NCBI GenBank assembly: GCA_043754255.1
Contig: JAYUVG010000167.1
Span: forward strand, 39,864 to 63,863
Direction of reading: 5' to 3'
Length of the DNA stretch: 24,000 nucleotides
Source of the DNA: Polaromonas sp.
GTDB taxonomy: Bacteria; Pseudomonadota; Gammaproteobacteria; Burkholderiales; Burkholderiaceae_C
Shown in pieces: positions 1 to 17,942 of the stretch. The notes beneath the pieces were generated by a model. The model saw only the letters and a program-made list of their open reading frames with translations, had not been told where the DNA came from and ran no database searches. The position numbers and the translations under genes are program-made. Every line of letters begins with the position of its first letter. The stretch's first letter is position 1.

Positions 1-1010
1 GGATCGGTTTGCCTCAAGGCTTCATAAAGCGCATCAAAGACAGGGCTGCGCATGTTCTGGTCGATGATCACCAGATTGGGCAGCTGCAACTCGCAAAACC
101 GGATAGCTTGTTCAGCGTTCAAAACGCCGTCAACTACCAGGCCAGCGCCCTGGCAGACAGACCGGATTTGCACCTGAAGGCGGGCGTCGTCAGTGATCAC
201 CAGCAGCCGCATGCCGGCCATTGGTTTTGATTCGCCATACATGGATTCGGGGCCGGTTTCCATTTCAACAGCGCTCATGCCGCCCAGTCGTTTGACGGTG
301 CGGGCAAACTCAATGCTCAAGCTGGTGTCAACAGCTGAACTTGCCCGTTTGATGGACAAACCCATGGCCTGGCAAATCTCATTGAGCAGATACCAGCCAA
401 CCGTGTTGGTAGAAGGTTCGGCTTGGTCAGTACTTGCGGGCACATGGCCTGGAAGATGGCCGGACTTTAAAATCAGCAGCCCATGTTCAGGCCAGTTCAT
501 CATCTCCAGTGTTACGGTTAATTTGCCTCCCAATTGCGCCGCCCAGTCCAGCGCAGCATCAACCAGACTGTGAAGCAAGGCCGCGTCAACGATGACTTCA
601 ACGGGTCGAATTCTCTGAAAAATCTCGATGCCGCGTTGCTTGAACGCTTTTGATTGCTCCCGCAATGCCGCCAACACCAGCTCATCGAGCTTCATCGTTT
701 CATGCGACTGCCGCAAACGGCCACTTGCAAGCCGCGCAATTTGCTGACTTTGCATGGCCAGCTTGCGCGCCAGGTTCACACCGTCAACCAGAACCAGCAT
801 GTTTTCCCGGCTTAGATGCTGTGTCTGTTCAATCGCCTCAAGCGCTGCCCGCATGTTGGCCAGTGGCTCGGACAACTGCGAACCTATTGCGCCCGCCAAA
901 GCGAAGTCAGATGGCGCAATAGCACCGTCTGAAAGCAATGGGCTGTTTGCCGAGTCCTGGGTGATCAACGGCACAGGTTTGCTGTTTTTTGTATTTAAAA
1001 ATCTGTTCAT
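1..1010 (-). CDS. Hybrid sensor-like protein: degenerate histidine-kinase-like region fused to a CheY-like receiver (start in window, 3' end runs off the left edge)
   Basis: Absent from the supplied track because it is open at the window edge. My translation of the minus strand starts at ATG (rc of cat 1008-1010), preceded by GGAGG (rc of 1017-1021, 6-nt spacer). The frame stays open to nt 1 (336 codons, MNRFLNTKNSKPVPLITQDS...). The H-box position reads AIGSQLSEPLANM with no His, and I see no N/G1/G2 ATP-binding boxes. The C-terminal part MRLLVITDDARLQ...NLVIIDQNMRSPVFDAL is receiver-like. The + ORFs 9-230, 193-573, 650-922 and 754-1161 are antisense shadows. Confidence 0.55.
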   Translation of the reverse strand, partial: MNRFLNTKNSKPVPLITQDSANSPLLSDGAIAPSDFALAGAIGSQLSEPLANMRAALEAIEQTQHLSRENMLVLVDGVNLARKLAMQSQQIARLASGRLRQSHETMKLDELVLAALREQSKAFKQRGIEIFQRIRPVEVIVDAALLHSLVDAALDWAAQLGGKLTVTLEMMNWPEHGLLILKSGHLPGHVPASTDQAEPSTNTVGWYLLNEICQAMGLSIKRASSAVDTSLSIEFARTVKRLGGMSAVEMETGPESMYGESKPMAGMRLLVITDDARLQVQIRSVCQGAGLVVDGVLNAEQAIRFCELQLPNLVIIDQNMRSPVFDALYEALRQTD

Positions 1011-10584: not shown

Positions 10585-11367
10585 TTAGGGTGCAAGGTAG
10601 CTGACAAGCTTTTGACTGAAGACATCAGCAGCCTCTTGCCAGCCCACTGAAACACCGATTGTACGAAGGTCAACCGTTTGCAAACCCGCGTAGCCGCAGG
10701 GGTTGATGCGCGAGAAGGGTTCCAGGTCCATCGCCACATTCAGCGCCACGCCGTGGTAGGTGCAGTGGCGGCTGACCTTGATGCCGAGGGCGGCGATTTT
10801 GCCGAGGCCGGCAAATGCGGGGTCAGCGAAATTGGGGTCAGAGCCACTTCGCTTCGCTACGGGATCCGACCCCAATTTCGCGGTGCGGGGAGGGGGCAGC
10901 ATGGCATGAGAAAACGGATCATCCAGCCGCACATAAATCCCTGGCGCGCCACGTACCCGATGCCCTGTCACGCCAAAATGCGCCAGCGTGCGAATCACTG
11001 CTTCTTCCACCCGATACACGTATTCTTTAACGTAATAGCCCGCCGCTTTCAAGTCAACCAGCGGATACGCCACAACCTGCCCCGGCCCATGAAACGTCAC
11101 CTGCCCACCCCGGTCGGTTTGCACAATCGGGATGTTGCCGGGGTTTAAAACGTGTTCAGTCTTGCCTGCCAGGCCCTGCGTAAAAACCGCTGGGTGCTCA
11201 CAAATCCATAGCTGGTTGCGCGCATTCTGTGCTGGCTGGAGGTCGATTTGACCATTATTTTGATCTGTTTTGGTGCTTCTGGCGGCGGTGTACGCCTGCA
11301 TGGCGGCCCATGTTGGCAGGTACTCGACTTGCCCGAGCTGGCGGACTTCCATGAACGGCTCGTTCAC
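10585..11367 (-). CDS. lipB: Octanoyltransferase LipB, with an internal repeat-derived insertion
   Basis: Contains [45 protein letters not shown] and INPCGY. The start is either GTG at 11367 (overlapping the res TGA as GTGA) or ATG at 11352 ([11 protein letters not shown]...). Confidence 0.9.
10826..10881. repeat. Palindromic element inside lipB (in frame)
   Basis: GCGAAATTGGGGTC (10826-10839) and GACCCCAATTTCGC (10868-10881) are perfect 14-bp inverted arms. GGGGTCAG occurs twice (10818-10825 and 10834-10841). In LipB the element is translated as ..[20 protein letters not shown].. Confidence 0.7.
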
Positions 11368-14054
11368 CCCAACAGCCTGTCAAGTTGCCCAGACATGCCC
11401 ACGCCATCGTGGTCTTTGATGATCTGCCCAAACACACATTTGCCGCCGCTTTTGGCCGCCCACAACTCGCCAATTTGCCGCTTTTCAATCTCAAGTGGAA
11501 TATTGAGTAATTGCGCGCCTTTGTACTCAACGACGGCAATGCGCCCGTCTGTCAGCTCCGCTACAAAGTCCGGAAAAAACCGCCCGCGCGATGTGGCCAG
11601 TGCAAAGCCGCAAGGCTGCGTGACCAGATTGCGCACCCAGTGTTTGACAGAGTGGTGTTTGTCCAGCAGTTGCGCGCACAAAAACTCTTCGCCGTCGTCT
11701 TTCAGGTCAGCCAGCACCGGGTAGAAGTGTCTGTTGAACTGGTAGCGGCCTGCGTAACGCCCGCCAGCAGGCACCGGGTAGCGATTCGCCTCAAACAAAA
11801 GCGGGCGCGTCCAGTCGGGCTCAATCGTCCACTCGCCTTCAAGCACAAGCTGGCGAAATTGCGCTTTGGCGGCTTTGTCTTTCAGGTCGCCGACCCGTGC
11901 CTCAATGTCTTGAGCCAATTTGAATCGCGCTTTGACCAGGGTTGCCAGCGGCACGCCGCGCTCATGCATCAGGTGGCTGACGACGGCTGCAAAGTAGCTG
12001 CTGCGCTGGCCTTGCGTCAAATCGGGTAGCTTTTGAAACAGCGACTGGTCCAGCCAGCGCACCAAATCTTGCGCGGTGATGGTGGTGGAGCCATAGTCAA
12101 ACGCGATCTGGCTGGCGTCCGCCGCGCGCAGATTGACTTTGCTGTCTTTTAAATAAATCTCAAACGTATTGGACTGCTCCACCACCTGAAAGCCTGGCAA
12201 TGCAATCGCATCTGGGCTAAGTAAATCCAGCTCGACAGCTTCAAGCACCGCCTCACGCTCCAGCGGCCACAACTGGCCCTGCGGTGTGCTGCGGTAGCCC
12301 AGCGTGGGCACGGGCGCAAAGCGCGCACCGCGCGATGCGGGCGCGGCCTGGGCGGCAACCAGCGCGTTGTGCTGCGCGACTTTGGCAACGACCAGCTCCT
12401 GCTTTTTGGCACCGCGCACCTGCGCCACCAACAGCGCTTCCAGCTCCAGACTGATGTGGCCGGTGACGACGAGGTTTTGCTCACCGGCAATTTGCATGAC
12501 TTCAACACCAGCGGCATGGCGCAACTCCTCTGACGGCGCAGGTGCTATAAAATTAGTAGCTGTTTGCGCAGTATTTATGTCGGCTAGAGGCTCATTTGAT
12601 GTATAAAACTGATCGAAAAGGGGCAAATTGGACTGCTGCACCACCATCGACGCCACATCCAGCGCCTCAAAACCCATGTTGTTGATGAGCCTGTCGGCCA
12701 GCTCATGCGCAGCGGTTGAAAACTTGGCCTCGCAGACGTGTGCATATGCGCGATTGAGCGCTTCCCGCCCACGCGGGCTGGCATACGGCATGCGTAGCAC
12801 GCGGCCCAGCAGCTGCTCCACCGCAGTCGCGCTTGACAGCTTTTGCAGCGAACACAGCACGTAGGCAAACGGGCAGTCCCAGCCTTCACGCAGCGCCTGC
12901 ACCGTAATCACAAAGCGCACCGGGCAGTCGCGGGACGACAAGTCCAGCCCCTCCAGCTCGCGCGTGTCGCCGGTGGCTACTTTGATCTGCTCAGGCGGTA
13001 TGTGCAGTTCGTCCTGCAGATGTTTGCGCAATGCCTCGGGCGGCACCTCATCGTTTTCGTTCTGGGCCTGAAACAGCACAATTGGCCGGACGTAGCCATT
13101 GCCTGCCGCTTCATCCTTCAACGCTTCGCTTTCCAGCGCGCGCTGGCTTTGTACCGCGGCAAACACCGCCTGCTGCCAGCCCTGCGGGTGCTCGGCCAGC
13201 GCAATCGGCAGCTTGATCATGCTTTCCGCCGCCAGCTCCTGCGCGCTGACGTGGTACAGCACATTGGTTTTGCCCGGGATGGGCGTAGCCGTCAGTTCCA
13301 AAATGGCGCTGGGGTTCAGGCGCTTCAGGGCGGTAAAGCTTTTGTCGGTTTTGGTGTTGTGCGCCTCGTCAACAATCAGCAGCGGCTCATGCAGTGCCAG
13401 CCAGTTGGCCAAGCTCCAGCGCGGCTGGTTGATGAAACCTGCCAGCACGCCGGTCTTGTCATGGGTTGCTTCATCAGGCGTGACCAACGCATCCGGCAAG
13501 CCGTGCAGCACCCGCAAACGCTGTTCATCACAGCCCTTGAAGTGCCGCTCAAAGCTTTCAGAAAAGCTGTACACATTGCGCTTGTCGGTGTCGTCCACCC
13601 GAAAGCTCTGAATGGTGGCTACCACCACCACGGCACGCTGGCCCCAGTCTGGCGGGGCAATATTTGCCAAATCCTCCAGCACACACACCCGCACGCCGCT
13701 GCCGTAGCTGGCCTCCAGCGCCTCACGGTACGGGTGGCCAGCGGTTTGCAGCGCTTTAAGCGTCTGGCTGCGAATCGTGTCACTCGGCACCAGCCACACC
13801 GCCACCGGCGCATCGGTAGCGCGCCATTCCTGCGCCAACACATTCACAGCATGCGCCGCCATCAGCGTTTTGCCGCCGCCGGTGGGGATGCGCAGGCAAA
13901 TGCACGGCACCTGGCCAAAAGGGTCAGCGTTGTAAGGCCGCCCCACCGCTTCGCCAAAAGCCATGGCCGCGCCTTTTAACTGGGCTGACCGGGCAAATGC
14001 CCGCAGCGCGTCTAGCGCGGCTTGCTGGTAGGACTTGAGGGTAAGGGTGGTCAT
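11364..14054 (-). CDS. res: Type III restriction enzyme Res subunit (SF2 helicase plus PD-(D/E)xK nuclease)
   Basis: 896 aa. The helicase motifs are [21 protein letters not shown] and [10 protein letters not shown]. The C-terminal [17 protein letters not shown] is a PD..ExK nuclease motif. Confidence 0.9.
12543..12606. repeat. Copy 4 of the ~62-bp dispersed repeat, in frame inside res
   Basis: TGCTATAAAATTAGTAGCTGTTTGCGCAGTATTTATGTCGGCTAGAGGCTCATTTGATGTATAA. By my hand alignment 47 of the first 58 nt match copy 2. The rc is translated within Res as ..[21 protein letters not shown].. Confidence 0.75.
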
Positions 14055-14059
14055 TTGTT

Positions 14060-14088
14060 TTGCAGAACAGTGGTTTACGGATTAAAAT
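14060..14088 (+). promoter_or_regulatory. Sigma70-like promoter motif P1 (antisense to the operon)
   Basis: TTGCAG (14060-14065) - 17 nt - TAAAAT (14083-14088). It is 23/29 identical to the motif at 14260-14288. The -35 box lies 6 nt from the res start codon, on the opposite strand. Confidence 0.35.
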
Positions 14089-14259
14089 GCTGGTGTGGGA
14101 ACAAAAATCGGCTTCATGCCGTGAGAATGCAAAGCGCAGGTAACTGGGTAGCGCACTCCTATATTCCCACCCCTTTTCTATTTTGTCTCCGCAGCTTCCG
14201 TCCCACACCAGGCGACTAGAGCCAAAATGTCGTGGATGCTGCGGGGCCTCTTCTCTACT

Positions 14260-14288
14260 TTGCTAAATATTGCTTTACCGATTAAAAT
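14260..14288 (+). promoter_or_regulatory. Sigma70-like promoter motif P2 (antisense to the operon)
   Basis: TTGCTA (14260-14265) - 17 nt - TAAAAT (14283-14288). It lies exactly 200 bp downstream of P1 and shares the core TTTACnGATTAAAAT. Confidence 0.35.
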
Positions 14289-14295
14289 CTATTCT

Positions 14296-14372
14296 CACCC
14301 GCGAAGTCGTTTCGGACGTTAAGAGAAGGGGGCGAAAGCCAGCATGCACTCGTCGCGGGTGTACTTTTTATT
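14296..14372 (+). ncRNA. Candidate small structured RNA downstream of P2 (hypothetical)
   Basis: The 9-bp perfect stem CACCCGCGA (14296-14304) / TCGCGGGTG (14353-14361) starts about 7 nt after the P2 -10 box. It encloses GGC-GAAA-GCC (14331-14340) and is followed by TACTTTTTATT. There is no ORF with an RBS. This rests on sequence shape only, with no transcript evidence. Confidence 0.22.
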
Positions 14373-14387
14373 CAGGCACATCATTAT

Positions 14388-14933
14388 TCAGGCGCTCCAG
14401 GCGCCTTTTTTCTTGCGTAATGAATCCGTGGCAACCAGTTTGTGCTTGCCCCGAATTTCTTCAATGTGTCGGTAGCCTATGCCGTCAATCACTTTCACAA
14501 ATACGATCACGTTGCGGCCAATCTTGTTTTTGCCGTCTGCAAATACATTGTCTGGCTCTGACGTAATCACCAGGATTTTTTCAAAATCTTCCAATGTGAC
14601 AGCGATCTGACCGCGTTGGCTCTCTTGCTTGGCGTTGCCGTGCTGTTTGATGGTGTGGCGCACGCCGTAGTTGTCAAGAACGCGGGTGAACCCGGTCACA
14701 TCCAGCCCTGTTTTTTGCAGGATGAGTGGCGCGTTATCAACGTGGCCCAACGATACAAACGTTCGCCTGTCTGCAATCTGCATGGCTTGTTGTGCAAATT
14801 GGGTAATCGTCTCTTTAATGGAGTTGTCTTTGCTATGACCAGTTTCTTTTTTATTCTGCATGGGTTCAAATTTTTGGGTCGATGATTTGAATGTATCGGC
14901 CAATTGCCGACACCATGCGATAAATCGACACAC
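14388..14933 (-). CDS. Unknown protein between mod and res; candidate nuclease/toxin-like domain
   Basis: The track ORF is 181 aa from GTG at 14933. The first ATG at 14861 gives 157 aa (MQNKKETGHSKDN...). Neither start has a clear SD. It contains GVRHTIKQHGNAKQESQRGQIAVTLEDFEKI. The region is visibly more AT-rich than res or the 5' part of mod. Confidence 0.6.
   Translation of the reverse strand: MCRFIAWCRQLADTFKSSTQKFEPMQNKKETGHSKDNSIKETITQFAQQAMQIADRRTFVSLGHVDNAPLILQKTGLDVTGFTRVLDNYGVRHTIKQHGNAKQESQRGQIAVTLEDFEKILVITSEPDNVFADGKNKIGRNVIVFVKVIDGIGYRHIEEIRGKHKLVATDSLRKKKGAWSA
14390..14411 (+). terminator. Intrinsic-terminator-like hairpin on the + strand
   Basis: A-GGCGC-TCCAG-GCGCC-TTTTTT: a 5-6 bp GC stem followed by T6. 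It lies inside the last 8 codons of the minus-strand ORF, so it fits only a + strand (antisense) transcript. Confidence 0.4.
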
Positions 14934-14941
14934 CTGCGCTA

Positions 14942-16732
14942 CTACCGCCCCTTCACGTCATACGGTATGTGCTTGAACGTCACGTTCGCCTGCTTCAGGC
15001 GCTCTGCGCCCAGGCGGCAGGCTTCGCCGTAGACGAGTAGCGGGGCTTGGGGTTCTGGGGTGGTAGCGTGGAGGGCTAGCAGGGCTGCAAGCACATCGCG
15101 GGTGAGGACGTTGCCGCTGGCGGGGCGTTTGTCGCCTAATATGCCGTTGTAGAGCAGATAGCAGGCGAATTTGGGTGTTTTTATATGCTCAATCTGGCTG
15201 TAGCCGACATGATCAGCGCGCAAGCAGCTATTAATTTCATAGTACGTGCCCAGGTACGGCGTGCCGGGTTTGGCAGATGTTGCATCGAAGGACGCGCCGG
15301 TTTCTTGCTGCCAGACGAAGGCAGCCAGGGTTGCAAAGCGCACGGCCGGGTTGATGCGGCCTTGCTCGTCAAACACCGCCTCACCCAGCCGCATGAACCT
15401 GAAGCCGCCGCCGTGAAATGGCTCGCCGTTTCTTCCAGCTCCCCAGCCCACGGCTTTGCTGATGCCGCCTTGTTCGCCGTCGATGACTTTTTGCAGGCGC
15501 GGGGCGCAGTGGGTGGCGGCGTGTTCGCCCATTTCAATGCCGATCCAGCGGCGGCGCATTTTGTGGGCGACGGCGGCAGTGGTGCCTGAGCCGAGGAAGG
15601 AGTCGAGGATGAGGTCGTTTTCGTTGGTGGCTATGTGGAGGATGCGCTGAATCAGGCGCTCTGGTTTTGGGGTGTCAAAAGCATCACCTGCACCAAACAG
15701 TTCATTGATTTCTTTTTTAGCCTCCTGGTTGTGCCCAACTTCAGCGTTTGACCACCAGCTCCAGGAGTTTTGGCCTTCCATTTCACTCAAATAGCGCTTT
15801 AGTCGTGGCCTGGCGGTTCCATCTTTGCCAAACCAAACCCGATTTTCGGCAATTAGCTTCAAAAAGGTTGATTCTGCAAGAGCCCAGCATCTACCTGCGG
15901 GCGGCGCATGTGCGGTTCCGTTTGGCGCGATGACTGTGTAAAACTGGCTCGGAGTAGCATGGCCTGTCATGCCAGTGAAGTCTGTCGATGCCCAGGCACC
16001 ACGCGGGTCAGCGTCTGGATTTTTAAAGTCTTTTGCGCGTTCCTGGTTGATTTGTAGTTGATTAAAGTTTTCTTTCAAGGAATTATTTTTCTTGAAAACC
16101 AGGATGTGATCATGAGCGTCACCCAGTCGCAATCTGTTGTCTGTGGAGGTACGTTTTTGCCAAACGACATTCGCAACAAAATTCCCCCGCCCAAACACCT
16201 CATCCATCAACACCTTGAGGTAATGGCCTTCGTTGTCGTCAATCGTCACCCAGATGCTGCCGTCTTCCCGCAGCAGCTCGCGCAGCAGTTGCAGGCGCGG
16301 CAGCATCATGCTGAGCCACTGGGCATGTTCGAGGTTGTCGTCGTAGTGCTCAAACGCGCTTTTGGTGTTGTAGGGCGGGTCAATGAAGATGCATTTGACC
16401 TGGCCGCGGTAAAAGGGGAGCAGGGCTTTGAGGGCTTCGAGGTTGTCGCCCTGGATTAGGAGGTTGTCTTGGGTGGTGGGTGGAGAAGGGGTGCGGGGAG
16501 AGCCCTGTCTTGCAGACCGCTGGTCAGTCAGAGCCTGACCTTCTTCACGCTGTCCAGAAGCGCTCAAGCGCTCCTGGAGCCGCAGCGTGAAGCCCCCGCC
16601 CTCTCCCAGAGGGAGAGGGAGTTTGACGCCTGGGAAGGGAACATGTACAGACACCTGCTCCAGCAGCCGGTATGGCACGCGGGCAGAGGCGGTGAAGGCG
16701 CTTTGGCGGTTGAGCCAGTCTAAGGTGGGCAT
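14942..16732 (-). CDS. mod: Type III R-M DNA methyltransferase Mod (beta-class N6-adenine/N4-cytosine MTase)
   Basis: 596 aa. IFIDPPYNT (motif IV) precedes DSFLGSGTTAAVA (motif I), which is the beta-class order, with a TRD-sized region between them. The N-terminus PTLDWLNRQ...VPYRLL...NLLIQGDNLEALKAL is typical of Mod. Confidence 0.9.
   Translation of the reverse strand: MPTLDWLNRQSAFTASARVPYRLLEQVSVHVPFPGVKLPLPLGEGGGFTLRLQERLSASGQREEGQALTDQRSARQGSPRTPSPPTTQDNLLIQGDNLEALKALLPFYRGQVKCIFIDPPYNTKSAFEHYDDNLEHAQWLSMMLPRLQLLRELLREDGSIWVTIDDNEGHYLKVLMDEVFGRGNFVANVVWQKRTSTDNRLRLGDAHDHILVFKKNNSLKENFNQLQINQERAKDFKNPDADPRGAWASTDFTGMTGHATPSQFYTVIAPNGTAHAPPAGRCWALAESTFLKLIAENRVWFGKDGTARPRLKRYLSEMEGQNSWSWWSNAEVGHNQEAKKEINELFGAGDAFDTPKPERLIQRILHIATNENDLILDSFLGSGTTAAVAHKMRRRWIGIEMGEHAATHCAPRLQKVIDGEQGGISKAVGWGAGRNGEPFHGGGFRFMRLGEAVFDEQGRINPAVRFATLAAFVWQQETGASFDATSAKPGTPYLGTYYEINSCLRADHVGYSQIEHIKTPKFACYLLYNGILGDKRPASGNVLTRDVLAALLALHATTPEPQAPLLVYGEACRLGAERLKQANVTFKHIPYDVKGR
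16599..16619. repeat. Perfect palindrome CCCTCTCCC-AGA-GGGAGAGGG inside mod
   Basis: Translated as LPLPLGEG within a low-complexity stretch of about 57 aa (nt 16472-16642). It is accompanied by GGTCAG-N7-CTGACC (16532-16550). Confidence 0.6.
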
Positions 16733-16742
16733 GTGGTGTTAT

Positions 16743-17942
16743 TCAGGATGCAGCAAAGTTGGCCTCAACCGTCTCACGGTGAAACAGTTCAAGGTAAGGC
16801 TGGTAGCGGTACAGGCGGTTGCGGTCAAAGCCGGTGACTTCTTGCAGCCAGCCGCGCGCCTCCAGGTCTTTGGCCAACTTGACGGCGGTGGGGTGGGTGC
16901 AGCCGACGATTTCAGCAATCTGTTTGGGCGACACCAGCGGCTGCTTGAACAGGCTGTCGAGCAACTTCAATGCTTTGGGGCTTTTGATCAGCGCGGCCCG
17001 GTGTGCTTCGCGCATGGCGACGATGTCAGTTGCCGTGCGGGTTGCAGCCCGCGCCGTTTGACTGATGCCACGCAAGAAAAACTTCAGCCACGGCTCCCAC
17101 TGGCCATGCTCGCGGATGGCGGTCAAGCGGTCATAGTATTCAGCGCGGTGAGCTTTTAAAAACACAGACAGGTACAAAACAGGGCGCGACAAGGCTTGCT
17201 CTTCACACAGCATCAAGGTGATGAGCAACCTGCCCACGCGGCCATTGCCATCCAGAAATGGGTGAATGGTTTCAAACTGCGCATGCGCCAAGCCGCAACG
17301 TATCAGCAGCGGTGTGTCGGCTTTGCCGTTGTGCATGAACAGCTCAAGCGCGCCCAGGCTTGCCAACAGCTCATGCGGCGGTGGCGGAATGAAGCTGGCA
17401 GTTGACAAGCTGCTGCCAGTACCGCCTATCCAGTTTTGTGAGGTGCGGAATTCGCCTGGCGATCCAATGTGTGCTTTGTCGGACCCGCGCACGTTTTGCA
17501 TCAACTCGCCATGAATTTCTTGCAGCATTCGCAGGCTGAGTGGCAACTCATTGAGCCGACGCAAGCCGTGGTTCATGGCGCGGACGTAATTGATGACCTC
17601 TTCAACATCCTTTGGGCTGTCGTTGTGTGTGCCTTGTGCTTCAAATGCCAGGATGTCTTCCAGCGTGCTTTGCGTGCCCTCAATTTGCGAGGACAGCACG
17701 GCTTCGTGGCGCACATACATGCCTATAAACAAGTCGGGGTTGGGCAGCAAGGTGGCAATCGCATCCAGCCTGGCCAGGTCGCGGTCTGCTTGCGACAGCA
17801 GGGTTCTCAGCTCTCCCTCGAAATCAATGTCTGGGTCGGGCGGCAACGGCGCTGGAATGAATGCGCGGTAACCGGTTAACTGCTGAACATAACGGCCAGC
17901 ACGGTGGGGATGAAGTGCTCTGTCAGGTGGTAAAACTTTCAT
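16743..17942 (-). CDS. Fic-domain protein (class II-like: N-terminal inhibitory helix, Fic core, C-terminal wHTH)
   Basis: 399 aa. HPFLDGNGRVGR matches HxFx(D/E)GNGRxxR. SSQIEG matches the (S/T)xxxE(G/N) auto-inhibition motif upstream of the core. The C-terminal ..IAEIVGCTHPTAVKLAKDLEARGWLQEV.. is wHTH-like. The stop lies 10 nt before the mod ATG. Confidence 0.9.
   Translation of the reverse strand: MKVLPPDRALHPHRAGRYVQQLTGYRAFIPAPLPPDPDIDFEGELRTLLSQADRDLARLDAIATLLPNPDLFIGMYVRHEAVLSSQIEGTQSTLEDILAFEAQGTHNDSPKDVEEVINYVRAMNHGLRRLNELPLSLRMLQEIHGELMQNVRGSDKAHIGSPGEFRTSQNWIGGTGSSLSTASFIPPPPHELLASLGALELFMHNGKADTPLLIRCGLAHAQFETIHPFLDGNGRVGRLLITLMLCEEQALSRPVLYLSVFLKAHRAEYYDRLTAIREHGQWEPWLKFFLRGISQTARAATRTATDIVAMREAHRAALIKSPKALKLLDSLFKQPLVSPKQIAEIVGCTHPTAVKLAKDLEARGWLQEVTGFDRNRLYRYQPYLELFHRETVEANFAAS

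Follow-up and report, generated by a model that had tools for sequence, protein, structure and literature searches.

In a 24,000-nucleotide stretch of Polaromonas sp. DNA (the window; contig JAYUVG010000167.1 of assembly GCA_043754255.1), a small gene between the mod and res genes of a Type III restriction-modification (R-M) operon encodes a solo protein of the PBECR3 family, and the gene is followed by a conserved structured RNA element, here called E1, whose flanks read as those of a small RNA (sRNA) gene on the opposite strand. We favour, with a probability of about 0.5, the explanation that the two are an RNase effector and a convergent antidote sRNA, captured as a pair from Mu-like prophages into the R-M slot. 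The protein family and its solo forms are already known; by itself, the open reading frame (ORF) adds one more member to the family, in a new setting. According to Rfam 15 and the searchable literature, E1, its obligate pairing with PBECR3, a terminator built from the coding sequence (CDS), and the interchange of this pair with a DUF3800 gene and its RNA in an R-M slot are all undescribed.

The solo PBECR3 gene

An earlier note on this DNA, made from the letters alone, had described the ORF at 14388..14933(-) and had likened its HxxxxHG...RGQ pattern to the PBECR-type modules of MuF-like and polyvalent phage proteins. The ORF exists, and the likeness was borne out by a Pfam match to PBECR3 (PF18812) that covers positions 9-110 of the 115-position profile and scores 67.4 bits (E = 1.3e-18; the cut-off is 30), by MuF fusions among the relatives and by structure matches to polyvalent proteins. 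On sequence grounds, membership in the PBECR3 family is firm; PHROGs, NCBIfam and PADLOC gave no family for the window protein. When 1.84 billion representatives were searched exhaustively with HMMER, 1728 PF18812-type matches were obtained at E ≤ 1e-3, a mix of solo proteins of ~130-250 residues and fusions of up to 4572 residues. Among 5.8 billion clustered proteins the window protein has 84 close homologs, and PF18812 was found in all but two short fragments.

The RHTIKQHG...RGQ motifs quoted in the same note are present and invariant or nearly so. In an alignment of 20 homologs (50-76% identical; numbering of the 157-residue form), R68, H69, K72, H74, E80, R83-G84-Q85, D92, H132, E134-E135, D146 and S147 were invariant, with G75 and T89 nearly so (≥90%). 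The earlier note had made its proposal depend on conservation and purifying selection, and both were found: besides the 84 close homologs, pairwise dN/dS against the relatives was 0.11-0.18 with dS near saturation, which marks it as a functional gene.

Translation could begin at GTG 14933, giving 181 residues, or at ATG 14861, giving 157. The note had identified these two codons correctly, together with the lack of a good Shine-Dalgarno (SD) sequence before ATG 14861 as read from the sequence, but it was mistaken in calling them the only possible starts, since a third in-frame ATG lies at 14783 (Met27). That codon is excluded as the start by the conserved residues 19-26 upstream of Met27. We favour ATG 14861 because the relatives begin with 'MQ..' at the same position, and the extension from GTG 14933 is probably not translated. 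The composition is also as the note had described it, the ORF being AT-richer (48.5% GC; 0.57 at third codon positions) than mod (57.3%) and res (60.1%).

An AlphaFold2 (AF2) model built on the homolog alignment (pLDDT 89.4, pTM 0.82) consists of helices followed by a four-stranded meander, and a conserved N-terminal helix/strand extension of ~40 residues precedes the PBECR3 domain. The model matches domains in phage polyvalent proteins of 900-1170 residues (TMq 0.65-0.78, E down to 6e-10; BFVD). A prediction made in 2017 counts the PBECR domains with the most frequent effector domains that phage polyvalent and MuF proteins carry, and PBECR3 was described as having a conserved His in an N-terminal helix and a Ser/Thr in a C-terminal strand (PMC5512222). 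In the window protein, H69 and H74, both invariant, sit in helix 64-74, while strand 141-152 holds the invariant S147 and the nearly invariant T145. Endoribonuclease activity of PBECR3 is a prediction in the literature also, and the Barnase-EndoU-ColicinE5/D-RelE (BECR) fold, the active-site analogy and the RNase activity considered here rest on that profile-based prediction (PMC5512222). In the searchable literature we found no experimental characterisation of PBECR3 and no described partner or immunity factor. We describe the window protein as a predicted metal-independent RNase domain of the kind that Mu-like phages carry C-terminally on their MuF head protein; a free-standing RNase toxin or abortive-infection effector, as the note had proposed, is plausible. 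Indirect support for it comes from the obligate RNA partner, from the survival of the gene after the R-M genes have decayed, and from its association with a second R-M enzyme, all described below.

E1 and its linkage to PBECR3

E1, which proved to be the most distinctive feature of the gene and which the earlier note had not connected with the ORF, was first seen by aligning the spacers. In the window it begins 25 nt past the PBECR3 stop codon, a spacing that ranges from 3 to about 50 nt across loci. The element is a three-way junction of about 70 nt in which the closing stem P1 pairs 14296-14304 with 14353-14361, P2 (GAG/CUC) is capped by hairpin P3, and P4 is a GUC/GAC hairpin (RNAalifold). 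Its sequence is near-identical across loci despite saturated synonymous sites next door. Among 28 sequences, 95.4% of cells were paired compared to 35-60% when the partners were slid by 1-3 columns, and double-sided changes occurred in 10 of the 18 pairs; the observed values were reached by 0 of 500 shuffles. For 37 distinct sequences aligned to the covariance model, an alignment that leans to that model, 95.9% of cells were paired and 13 of the 18 pairs had double-sided changes.

Several other identities for E1 were considered and rejected. Searches of Rfam 15 at E ≤ 1 gave only noise for the window spacer, for five phage-context loci and for four DUF3800 loci. Hammerhead and other small ribozymes do not fit in junction lengths and core, and no Rfam model for them matched. 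The element is single-copy in the window genome, which speaks against a dispersed repeat or miniature inverted-repeat transposable element (MITE). A peptide encoded across E1 was dismissed on the grounds that the short sense ORF is interrupted at a variable site inside the element, that its ATG is absent in L012 and L015 (handles denote individual loci), and that the spacing between E1 and the CDS is not a multiple of 3. E1 is absent from GenBank phages and from PLSDB plasmids.

The linkage between the gene and the RNA is obligate in one direction. E1 follows this clade's gene in every context, whether solo or MuF-fused, in beta- and gammaproteobacteria and on IMG/VR viral contigs. Each of the roughly 30 distinct intact PBECR3 genes in the clade had it, with 0 cases of an intact gene lacking it, and the covariance model found it after every further solo copy fetched. 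Even a very diverged MuF-PBECR3 gene (L029) is followed by a degenerate E1 that keeps CGTCCGAAACGAC. The RNA, in contrast, is found where the protein is damaged or gone: it is kept beside a frameshifted PBECR3 (L020) and beside a faint remnant (L042), it occurs where there is no PBECR3 gene (L057), and where the catalytic core has been deleted (L021/L056) it still scores 84.9 bits and retains its promoter and terminator. Two inverted orphan copies about 150 nt apart, at 652-724(+) and 871-940(-) of L040, have no PBECR3 and adjoin the end of an IS3-type transposase and a small-terminase-like remnant. L040 and L042 were considered as cases of E1 following other genes and proved to be decayed remnants of phages or insertion sequences (IS). 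As with antitoxins and orphan immunity genes, such an asymmetry would be expected of an RNA that cells must have whenever they make the protein.

To read the strand of E1 we used promoter and terminator scans (Table 1). A predicted sigma-70 promoter on the strand opposite PBECR3 places the start of the putative sRNA at about 14295, at the base of P1. A TAnnnT -10 element ending 6-7 nt before P1 was kept at this fixed offset in 33 of 35 instances, compared to 0.16 expected from shuffles, and perfect TTGACA-N16/17-TAnnnT promoters were present in L003, L004, L035 and L038. On the same strand a U-run directly follows P1 in 17 of the 35 instances, a canonical hairpin with a U-run lies within 80 nt in 29, and one or other type of terminator is found in 31; the sense strand has hairpin terminators in 0 of 35. 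In the window the second terminator is formed by the last PBECR3 codons (K-K-G-A-W-S-A-stop), and an sRNA ending there would be about 118 nt long and would overlap the CDS by 25 nt, or its last 8 codons. The stem of this terminator is kept by paired changes that alter the protein C-terminus (GAWSA, GAWGS, GAWSS, GAWVS, GAWCA, GPWGP). The predicted antisense transcript, from ~14295 to ~14370 or ~14412, folds as the junction plus a terminator, and its P3 loop is a GNRA tetraloop (GAAA or GCAA) in most instances. Together, these signals lead us to read the flanks of E1 as those of an sRNA gene running against PBECR3.

Relatives of the window gene occur both in phages and in bacterial islands. MuF fusions were found in Aquariibacter albus SJAQ100 (L012), Panacagrimonas (L016), Thiodictyon (L017) and Thauera (L018), in L026 and L029, and on three IMG/VR contigs (L033-L035), where PBECR3 is likewise the C-terminus of a Phage_Mu_F protein. 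These fusions sit downstream of Portal_Mu, and the closer ones are 54-71% identical to the window protein. On the IMG/VR contigs no immunity ORF follows the fusion; E1 comes first, followed by either a methylase or the next head gene. The methylase case is a Mu-like contig (L034:8396-9181) in which an N6_N4 DNA methylase stands directly after MuF-PBECR3-E1, at a place usually taken by a gpG-like head gene.

Solo copies lie in a Fic-Mod-PBECR3-Res island between ybeD (DUF493) and lipB in many metagenome-assembled genomes of Comamonadaceae (L001, L008-L011, L013, L014, L020, L045, L053). PBECR3 separates mod from res in no fewer than 10 syntenic loci, and the Fic gene is syntenic with Mod in all complete relatives (e.g. 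L001, L011, L020, L045, L053). In a setting independent of this Type III locus (L039:8052-10420, the same as L036), a solo PBECR3 with E1 overlaps the end of an MmeI-family (Type IIL) R-M gene by 13 nt. Other solo copies (L003, L006, L007, L015, L047, L050, L052) are orphans or lie by IS elements and integrases, by a Cas3 HD gene or in islands rich in toxin-antitoxin (TA) genes. One assembly set holds three 189-residue PBECR3 copies with E1 in related records (L003, L004, L005), each after a protein of ~900 residues with no Pfam domain (two ORFs in L003). PBECR1 or MuF-PBECR2 proteins lie nearby and YafQ follows, in some cases together with RelB; these settings look like the effector-rich ends of prophages or islands. 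PF18812 was matched in 9 of 401 genomes of the bacterial family; the window genome has one PBECR3 copy, and all other matches lie in long open frames. Decay has gone both ways within the island: Mod and Res are internally deleted in L011 (6366-8237) and almost gone in L014 (6544-7760) with PBECR3 and E1 intact, while L020 is the reverse case, with PBECR3 frameshifted. In L014 the protein carries two substitutions, D146V and R131L, at positions that do not vary otherwise, and its decay may have begun.

E2 and cassette exchange in the mod-res spacer

The spacer between E1 and res holds another stem-closed structured element, E2, conserved in the window, L001 and L013. Its fold has a closing stem with 2 compensatory pairs. 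A second copy of the promoter-like 29-mer of E1 precedes E2 on the antisense strand and lies 6 nt from the res ATG. Like E1, E2 is single-copy in the genome, which excludes a dispersed repeat or MITE, and it is not a detectable E1 paralog, giving no match to the E1 covariance model with filters off. Neither E1 nor E2 matched the Rfam models DUF3800-I to XI at E ≤ 1 in the window spacer and the DUF3800 loci.

The origin of E2 is suggested by sister Type III loci, in which the mod-res slot holds a DUF3800 protein of 268-288 residues and no PBECR3 (L060:647-1453, L065:637-1449 and, on the reverse complement, L069 602-1468; PF12686 verified for L060 and L065). E2 directly follows the DUF3800 gene in all three, and the last codons of that gene also form a hairpin, after an A-run. 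At the 5′ side, homology between the two locus types extends from the 3′ end of mod across the spacer into the first 6-7 DUF3800 codons (MKTAN), and in L001, L008, L014 and L053 the ribosome-binding site and first 5-7 codons (MKTAN) of PBECR3 are those of the DUF3800 gene. At the 3′ side, homology resumes at the last ~13 DUF3800 codons and continues through E2 to the res start. The window keeps E2 and the second 29-mer and has its own 5′ junction, ending at the mod stop codon. Because of these limits of DNA homology, we conclude that a cassette of PBECR3 and E1 replaced the body of a DUF3800 gene. In this comparison of sequences E2 is best described as the leftover partner RNA of a DUF3800 gene formerly in the slot, and the mod-res spacer as a swap site for modules of an effector plus an RNA. 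Weinberg et al. (2017) reported eleven DUF3800 motifs tightly linked to their genes and often bearing terminators, and gave no functional hypothesis for them (PMC5737381); E2 may be a further member of this unexplained class.

Table 1. Features of the R-M island in the window, in window coordinates.
Feature	Position	Strand	Basis and remarks
Type III Res helicase-nuclease (ResIII)	11364..14054	-	PF04851, 53.8 bits
Second copy of promoter-like 29-mer	14060..14088	+	TTGCAG-N17-TAAAAT; promoter scan; before E2 on antisense strand
E2, second stem-closed structured element in spacer	14092..14173		Conserved in window, L001, L013; just upstream of res
Predicted sigma-70 promoter of antisense E1 sRNA	14260..14288	+	-35 TTGCTA 14260-65, 17 nt, -10 TAAAAT 14283-88; promoter scan
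E1, ~70-nt three-way-junction RNA	14293..14363		Covariance-model match 99.3 bits; consensus fold and covariation
Predicted terminator 1 of antisense sRNA	14345..14373	+	P1 stem, then CTTTTTATTC; predicted sRNA about 75 nt
Predicted terminator 2 of antisense sRNA	14390..14412	+	Hairpin AGGCGCTCCAGGCGCCT plus TTTTTCTT; terminator scan
Solo PBECR3 gene	14388..14861	-	157 residues from ATG 14861; ORF, PF18812, homologs, dN/dS, AF2 pLDDT 89.4
Putative 24-codon N-terminal extension from GTG 14933	14862..14933	-	Upstream residues not conserved in homologs
Type III Mod methyltransferase (N6_N4 type)	14942..16732	-	PF01555, 169.8 bits
Fic_N+Fic+winged helix-turn-helix protein, first gene of the island	16743..17942	-	PF13784, PF02661

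Explanations for the PBECR3-E1 pair

In the explanation that we favour, PBECR3 would be an RNase harmful to the cell, and the unit would comprise its CDS and the convergently transcribed structured sRNA E1, with the sRNA promoter just beyond the element. E1 would neutralise PBECR3 by binding the protein, as in type III TA systems, and/or by acting as antisense to the 3′ end of its mRNA, as in type I systems; protein recognition is argued for because loops and junctions are conserved. The two would form a self-contained toxin/antidote pair. In this lineage its source would be a Mu-like prophage, and recombination brought it into the mod-res passenger slot at ybeD-lipB, in place of an earlier DUF3800 gene with a partner RNA of its own (E2). 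For a Mu-like phage, the sRNA would shield the producing cell or lysogen from the RNase borne on MuF, and in the island the pair would stabilise the locus or serve as a second-line effector of the abortive-infection type. A link to defence is suggested by the independent MmeI-type association and by the copies in TA-rich or Cas3-adjacent islands, and self-sufficiency by the intact pair in L011 and L014, where Mod and Res have decayed. A bolder proposal, which we put forward tentatively, is that E1 is an RNA immunity factor that binds and neutralises the PBECR3 RNase, that Mu-like phages use it to keep producing or lysogenic cells safe from the RNase packaged on MuF, and that bacteria have domesticated it with its partner as a swappable effector in the mod-res slot of R-M islands, DUF3800 and E2 working on the same principle.

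Several observations weigh against the favoured explanation. The likeness to BECR, EndoU and RNase A folds raised in the earlier note was not recovered with Foldseek, in which no solved structure matched the AF2 model (best E in the PDB 0.34; XendoU E = 1.2, probability 0.06), and a profile search of PDB sequences gave no match. The topology of helices and then a four-stranded meander is compatible with the BECR fold, which these searches did not confirm independently. E1 is a feature of the 'DNYGVRHT' clade because the more distant PBECR3 domains tested gave no match or no room for it: L022, L025, L027, L028, L030 and L031 had no match to the E1 model, and the distant PBECR3 of Burkholderia phage phiE131 leaves no intergenic space for an RNA. 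The Type III R-M association is one inherited locus and not many independent events, and the PBECR3 start codon has no good SD sequence. Finally, G-U pairs number 16 on the sense strand and 10 on the antisense strand, a difference that does not settle the strand, and the gammaproteobacterial MuF fusions L016 and L017 have no clear antisense terminator.

The last two points would fit better if E1 were a cis-acting element in the sense 3′ untranslated region of the PBECR3 mRNA, serving as a site of processing or autoregulation that PBECR3 cuts or binds, or as a 3′ stabiliser, with the antisense signals secondary. E1 is necessarily co-transcribed with PBECR3, and the excess of G-U pairs on the sense strand is seen in P4 in particular (10 vs 3). 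We nevertheless consider this rather unlikely, since 33 of the 35 instances keep the -10 position and 29 have a hairpin terminator, on the antisense strand only, since the terminator stem is preserved by changes that alter the protein, and since E1 with its promoter and terminator outlasts deletion of the PBECR3 core in L021/L056. A role at the level of DNA, as an operator or as a site of recombination or attachment by which the PBECR3 cassette moves, seems highly improbable. It would account for the movement of the cassette among MuF genes, R-M slots and orphan sites and for a 3′ boundary just beyond E1; on the other hand, a duplex DNA site would not be expected to have several helices meeting in a junction, with compensatory changes and wobble pairs, and no recombinase is linked to E1. 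An integron attC site in particular was rejected, as E1 has no R or L core sites and shows the inverse pattern of conservation, with a variable outer stem and a conserved interior.

Two further readings make E1 incidental or the gene idle. The position of the gene inside the R-M operon in the syntenic loci, and the second copy after an MmeI-type enzyme, would suit a guard like that of PrrC-EcoprrI, in which Mod and Res keep the RNase latent until phage inhibition of restriction releases it. We find this improbable, as PBECR3 stays intact and under purifying selection in loci that have lost Mod and Res or have them internally deleted (L011, L014), as copies occur at non-R-M sites (L006, L007, L047, L050) and in phage MuF fusions, and as the protein has no similarity to PrrC or RloC. 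There is similarly little likelihood that a 3′ piece of a MuF gene recombined into the operon and has been passively kept with no role. The low GC content, the weak SD sequence and the chimeric DUF3800-derived N-terminus in L001, L008, L014 and L053 are what such a hitch-hiker would leave, whereas a dN/dS of 0.11-0.18 across loci with saturated synonymous sites, the retention of every catalytic-type residue, a frame that has stayed open over long divergence (Res differs by 9-55%) and the recurrence of solo forms in several unrelated contexts are not.

The antidote explanation can be placed among known systems. Within the PBECR3 family as described in PMC5512222, the window protein belongs by sequence and by its conserved His and Ser/Thr residues, and the occurrence both at MuF or portal C-termini and as solo genes is shared; here the solo gene is inside a Type III R-M operon, and the obligate RNA of this clade is not mentioned in that paper, which favours an offensive, phage-injected role whereas here the domain has been captured by a host. 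MuF polymorphic toxins (Jamet et al. 2017, PMC5576092) are also swappable C-terminal modules of temperate phages, but their immunity is a protein, while the window protein stands by itself and is followed by no immunity gene, the constant neighbour being an RNA. The unexplained proteobacterial extension 'Ct_MAD' of that study may correspond to the PBECR3 module. PrrC-EcoprrI and RloC share with this locus an RNase gene (predicted here) in an R-M operon and a possible second-line defence. No homology to them was found with Pfam, NCBIfam or PADLOC, which returned no match to an ABC-ATPase-like N-domain with a nuclease, and PrrC is silenced by the R-M protein, unlike PBECR3, which persists without functional Mod and Res (L011, L014, L006, L007, L047) and has its own RNA partner.

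Among TA systems, those of type III (ToxIN, CptIN, TenpIN) resemble the pair in joining a protein of the endoribonuclease type (predicted here) to a structured non-coding RNA conserved beyond what complementarity needs, in a context of defence or abortive infection, with the antidote outliving the toxin. Their toxins are ToxN/AbiQ-like and of unrelated fold, and Pfam, NCBIfam and PADLOC gave only PBECR3 here; their antitoxins come as tandem repeats, encoded ahead of the toxin in the same direction and processed by it, while E1 is single-copy, downstream and probably antisense. Binding and inhibition of the PBECR3 protein by E1 is nonetheless suggested by the conservation of sequence and structure together with the asymmetry between E1 and PBECR3. 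Type I systems with 3′ overlap (txpA/RatA, bsrG/SR4, par fst RNAI/RNAII) offer the likeness of a convergent sRNA that runs over the 3′ end of the toxin message and has a terminator region in common with it, an arrangement predicted here. Their toxins are small membrane peptides and not a soluble alpha/beta protein of 157 residues (predicted), and their antisense RNAs, unlike E1, keep neither sequence nor structure between distant taxa. The drum and skipping-rope DUF3800 motifs (PMC5737381) are likewise structured RNAs with Rho-independent terminators, tied to one conflict-type family and often on the opposite strand; the protein family of E1 differs, and the sister loci place DUF3800 and E2 in the same mod-res slot.

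With its two defined components, the PBECR3-E1 system lends itself directly to cloning and experiment. If the bolder proposal is true, the two would represent a new class of toxin/RNA-antidote pair, in which a convergent sRNA borrows its terminator from the last codons of the toxin. An antidote role for E1 would extend RNA antitoxins beyond the ToxN-like families to RNases of BECR type and would give phage-delivered polymorphic toxins an RNA-based immunity. The exchange in the mod-res slot connects the pair with the still unexplained RNA motifs of DUF3800 genes and hints at a logic common to both; if DUF3800 and E2 follow the same principle, this would be the first functional hypothesis for RNA motifs of the DUF3800 type.

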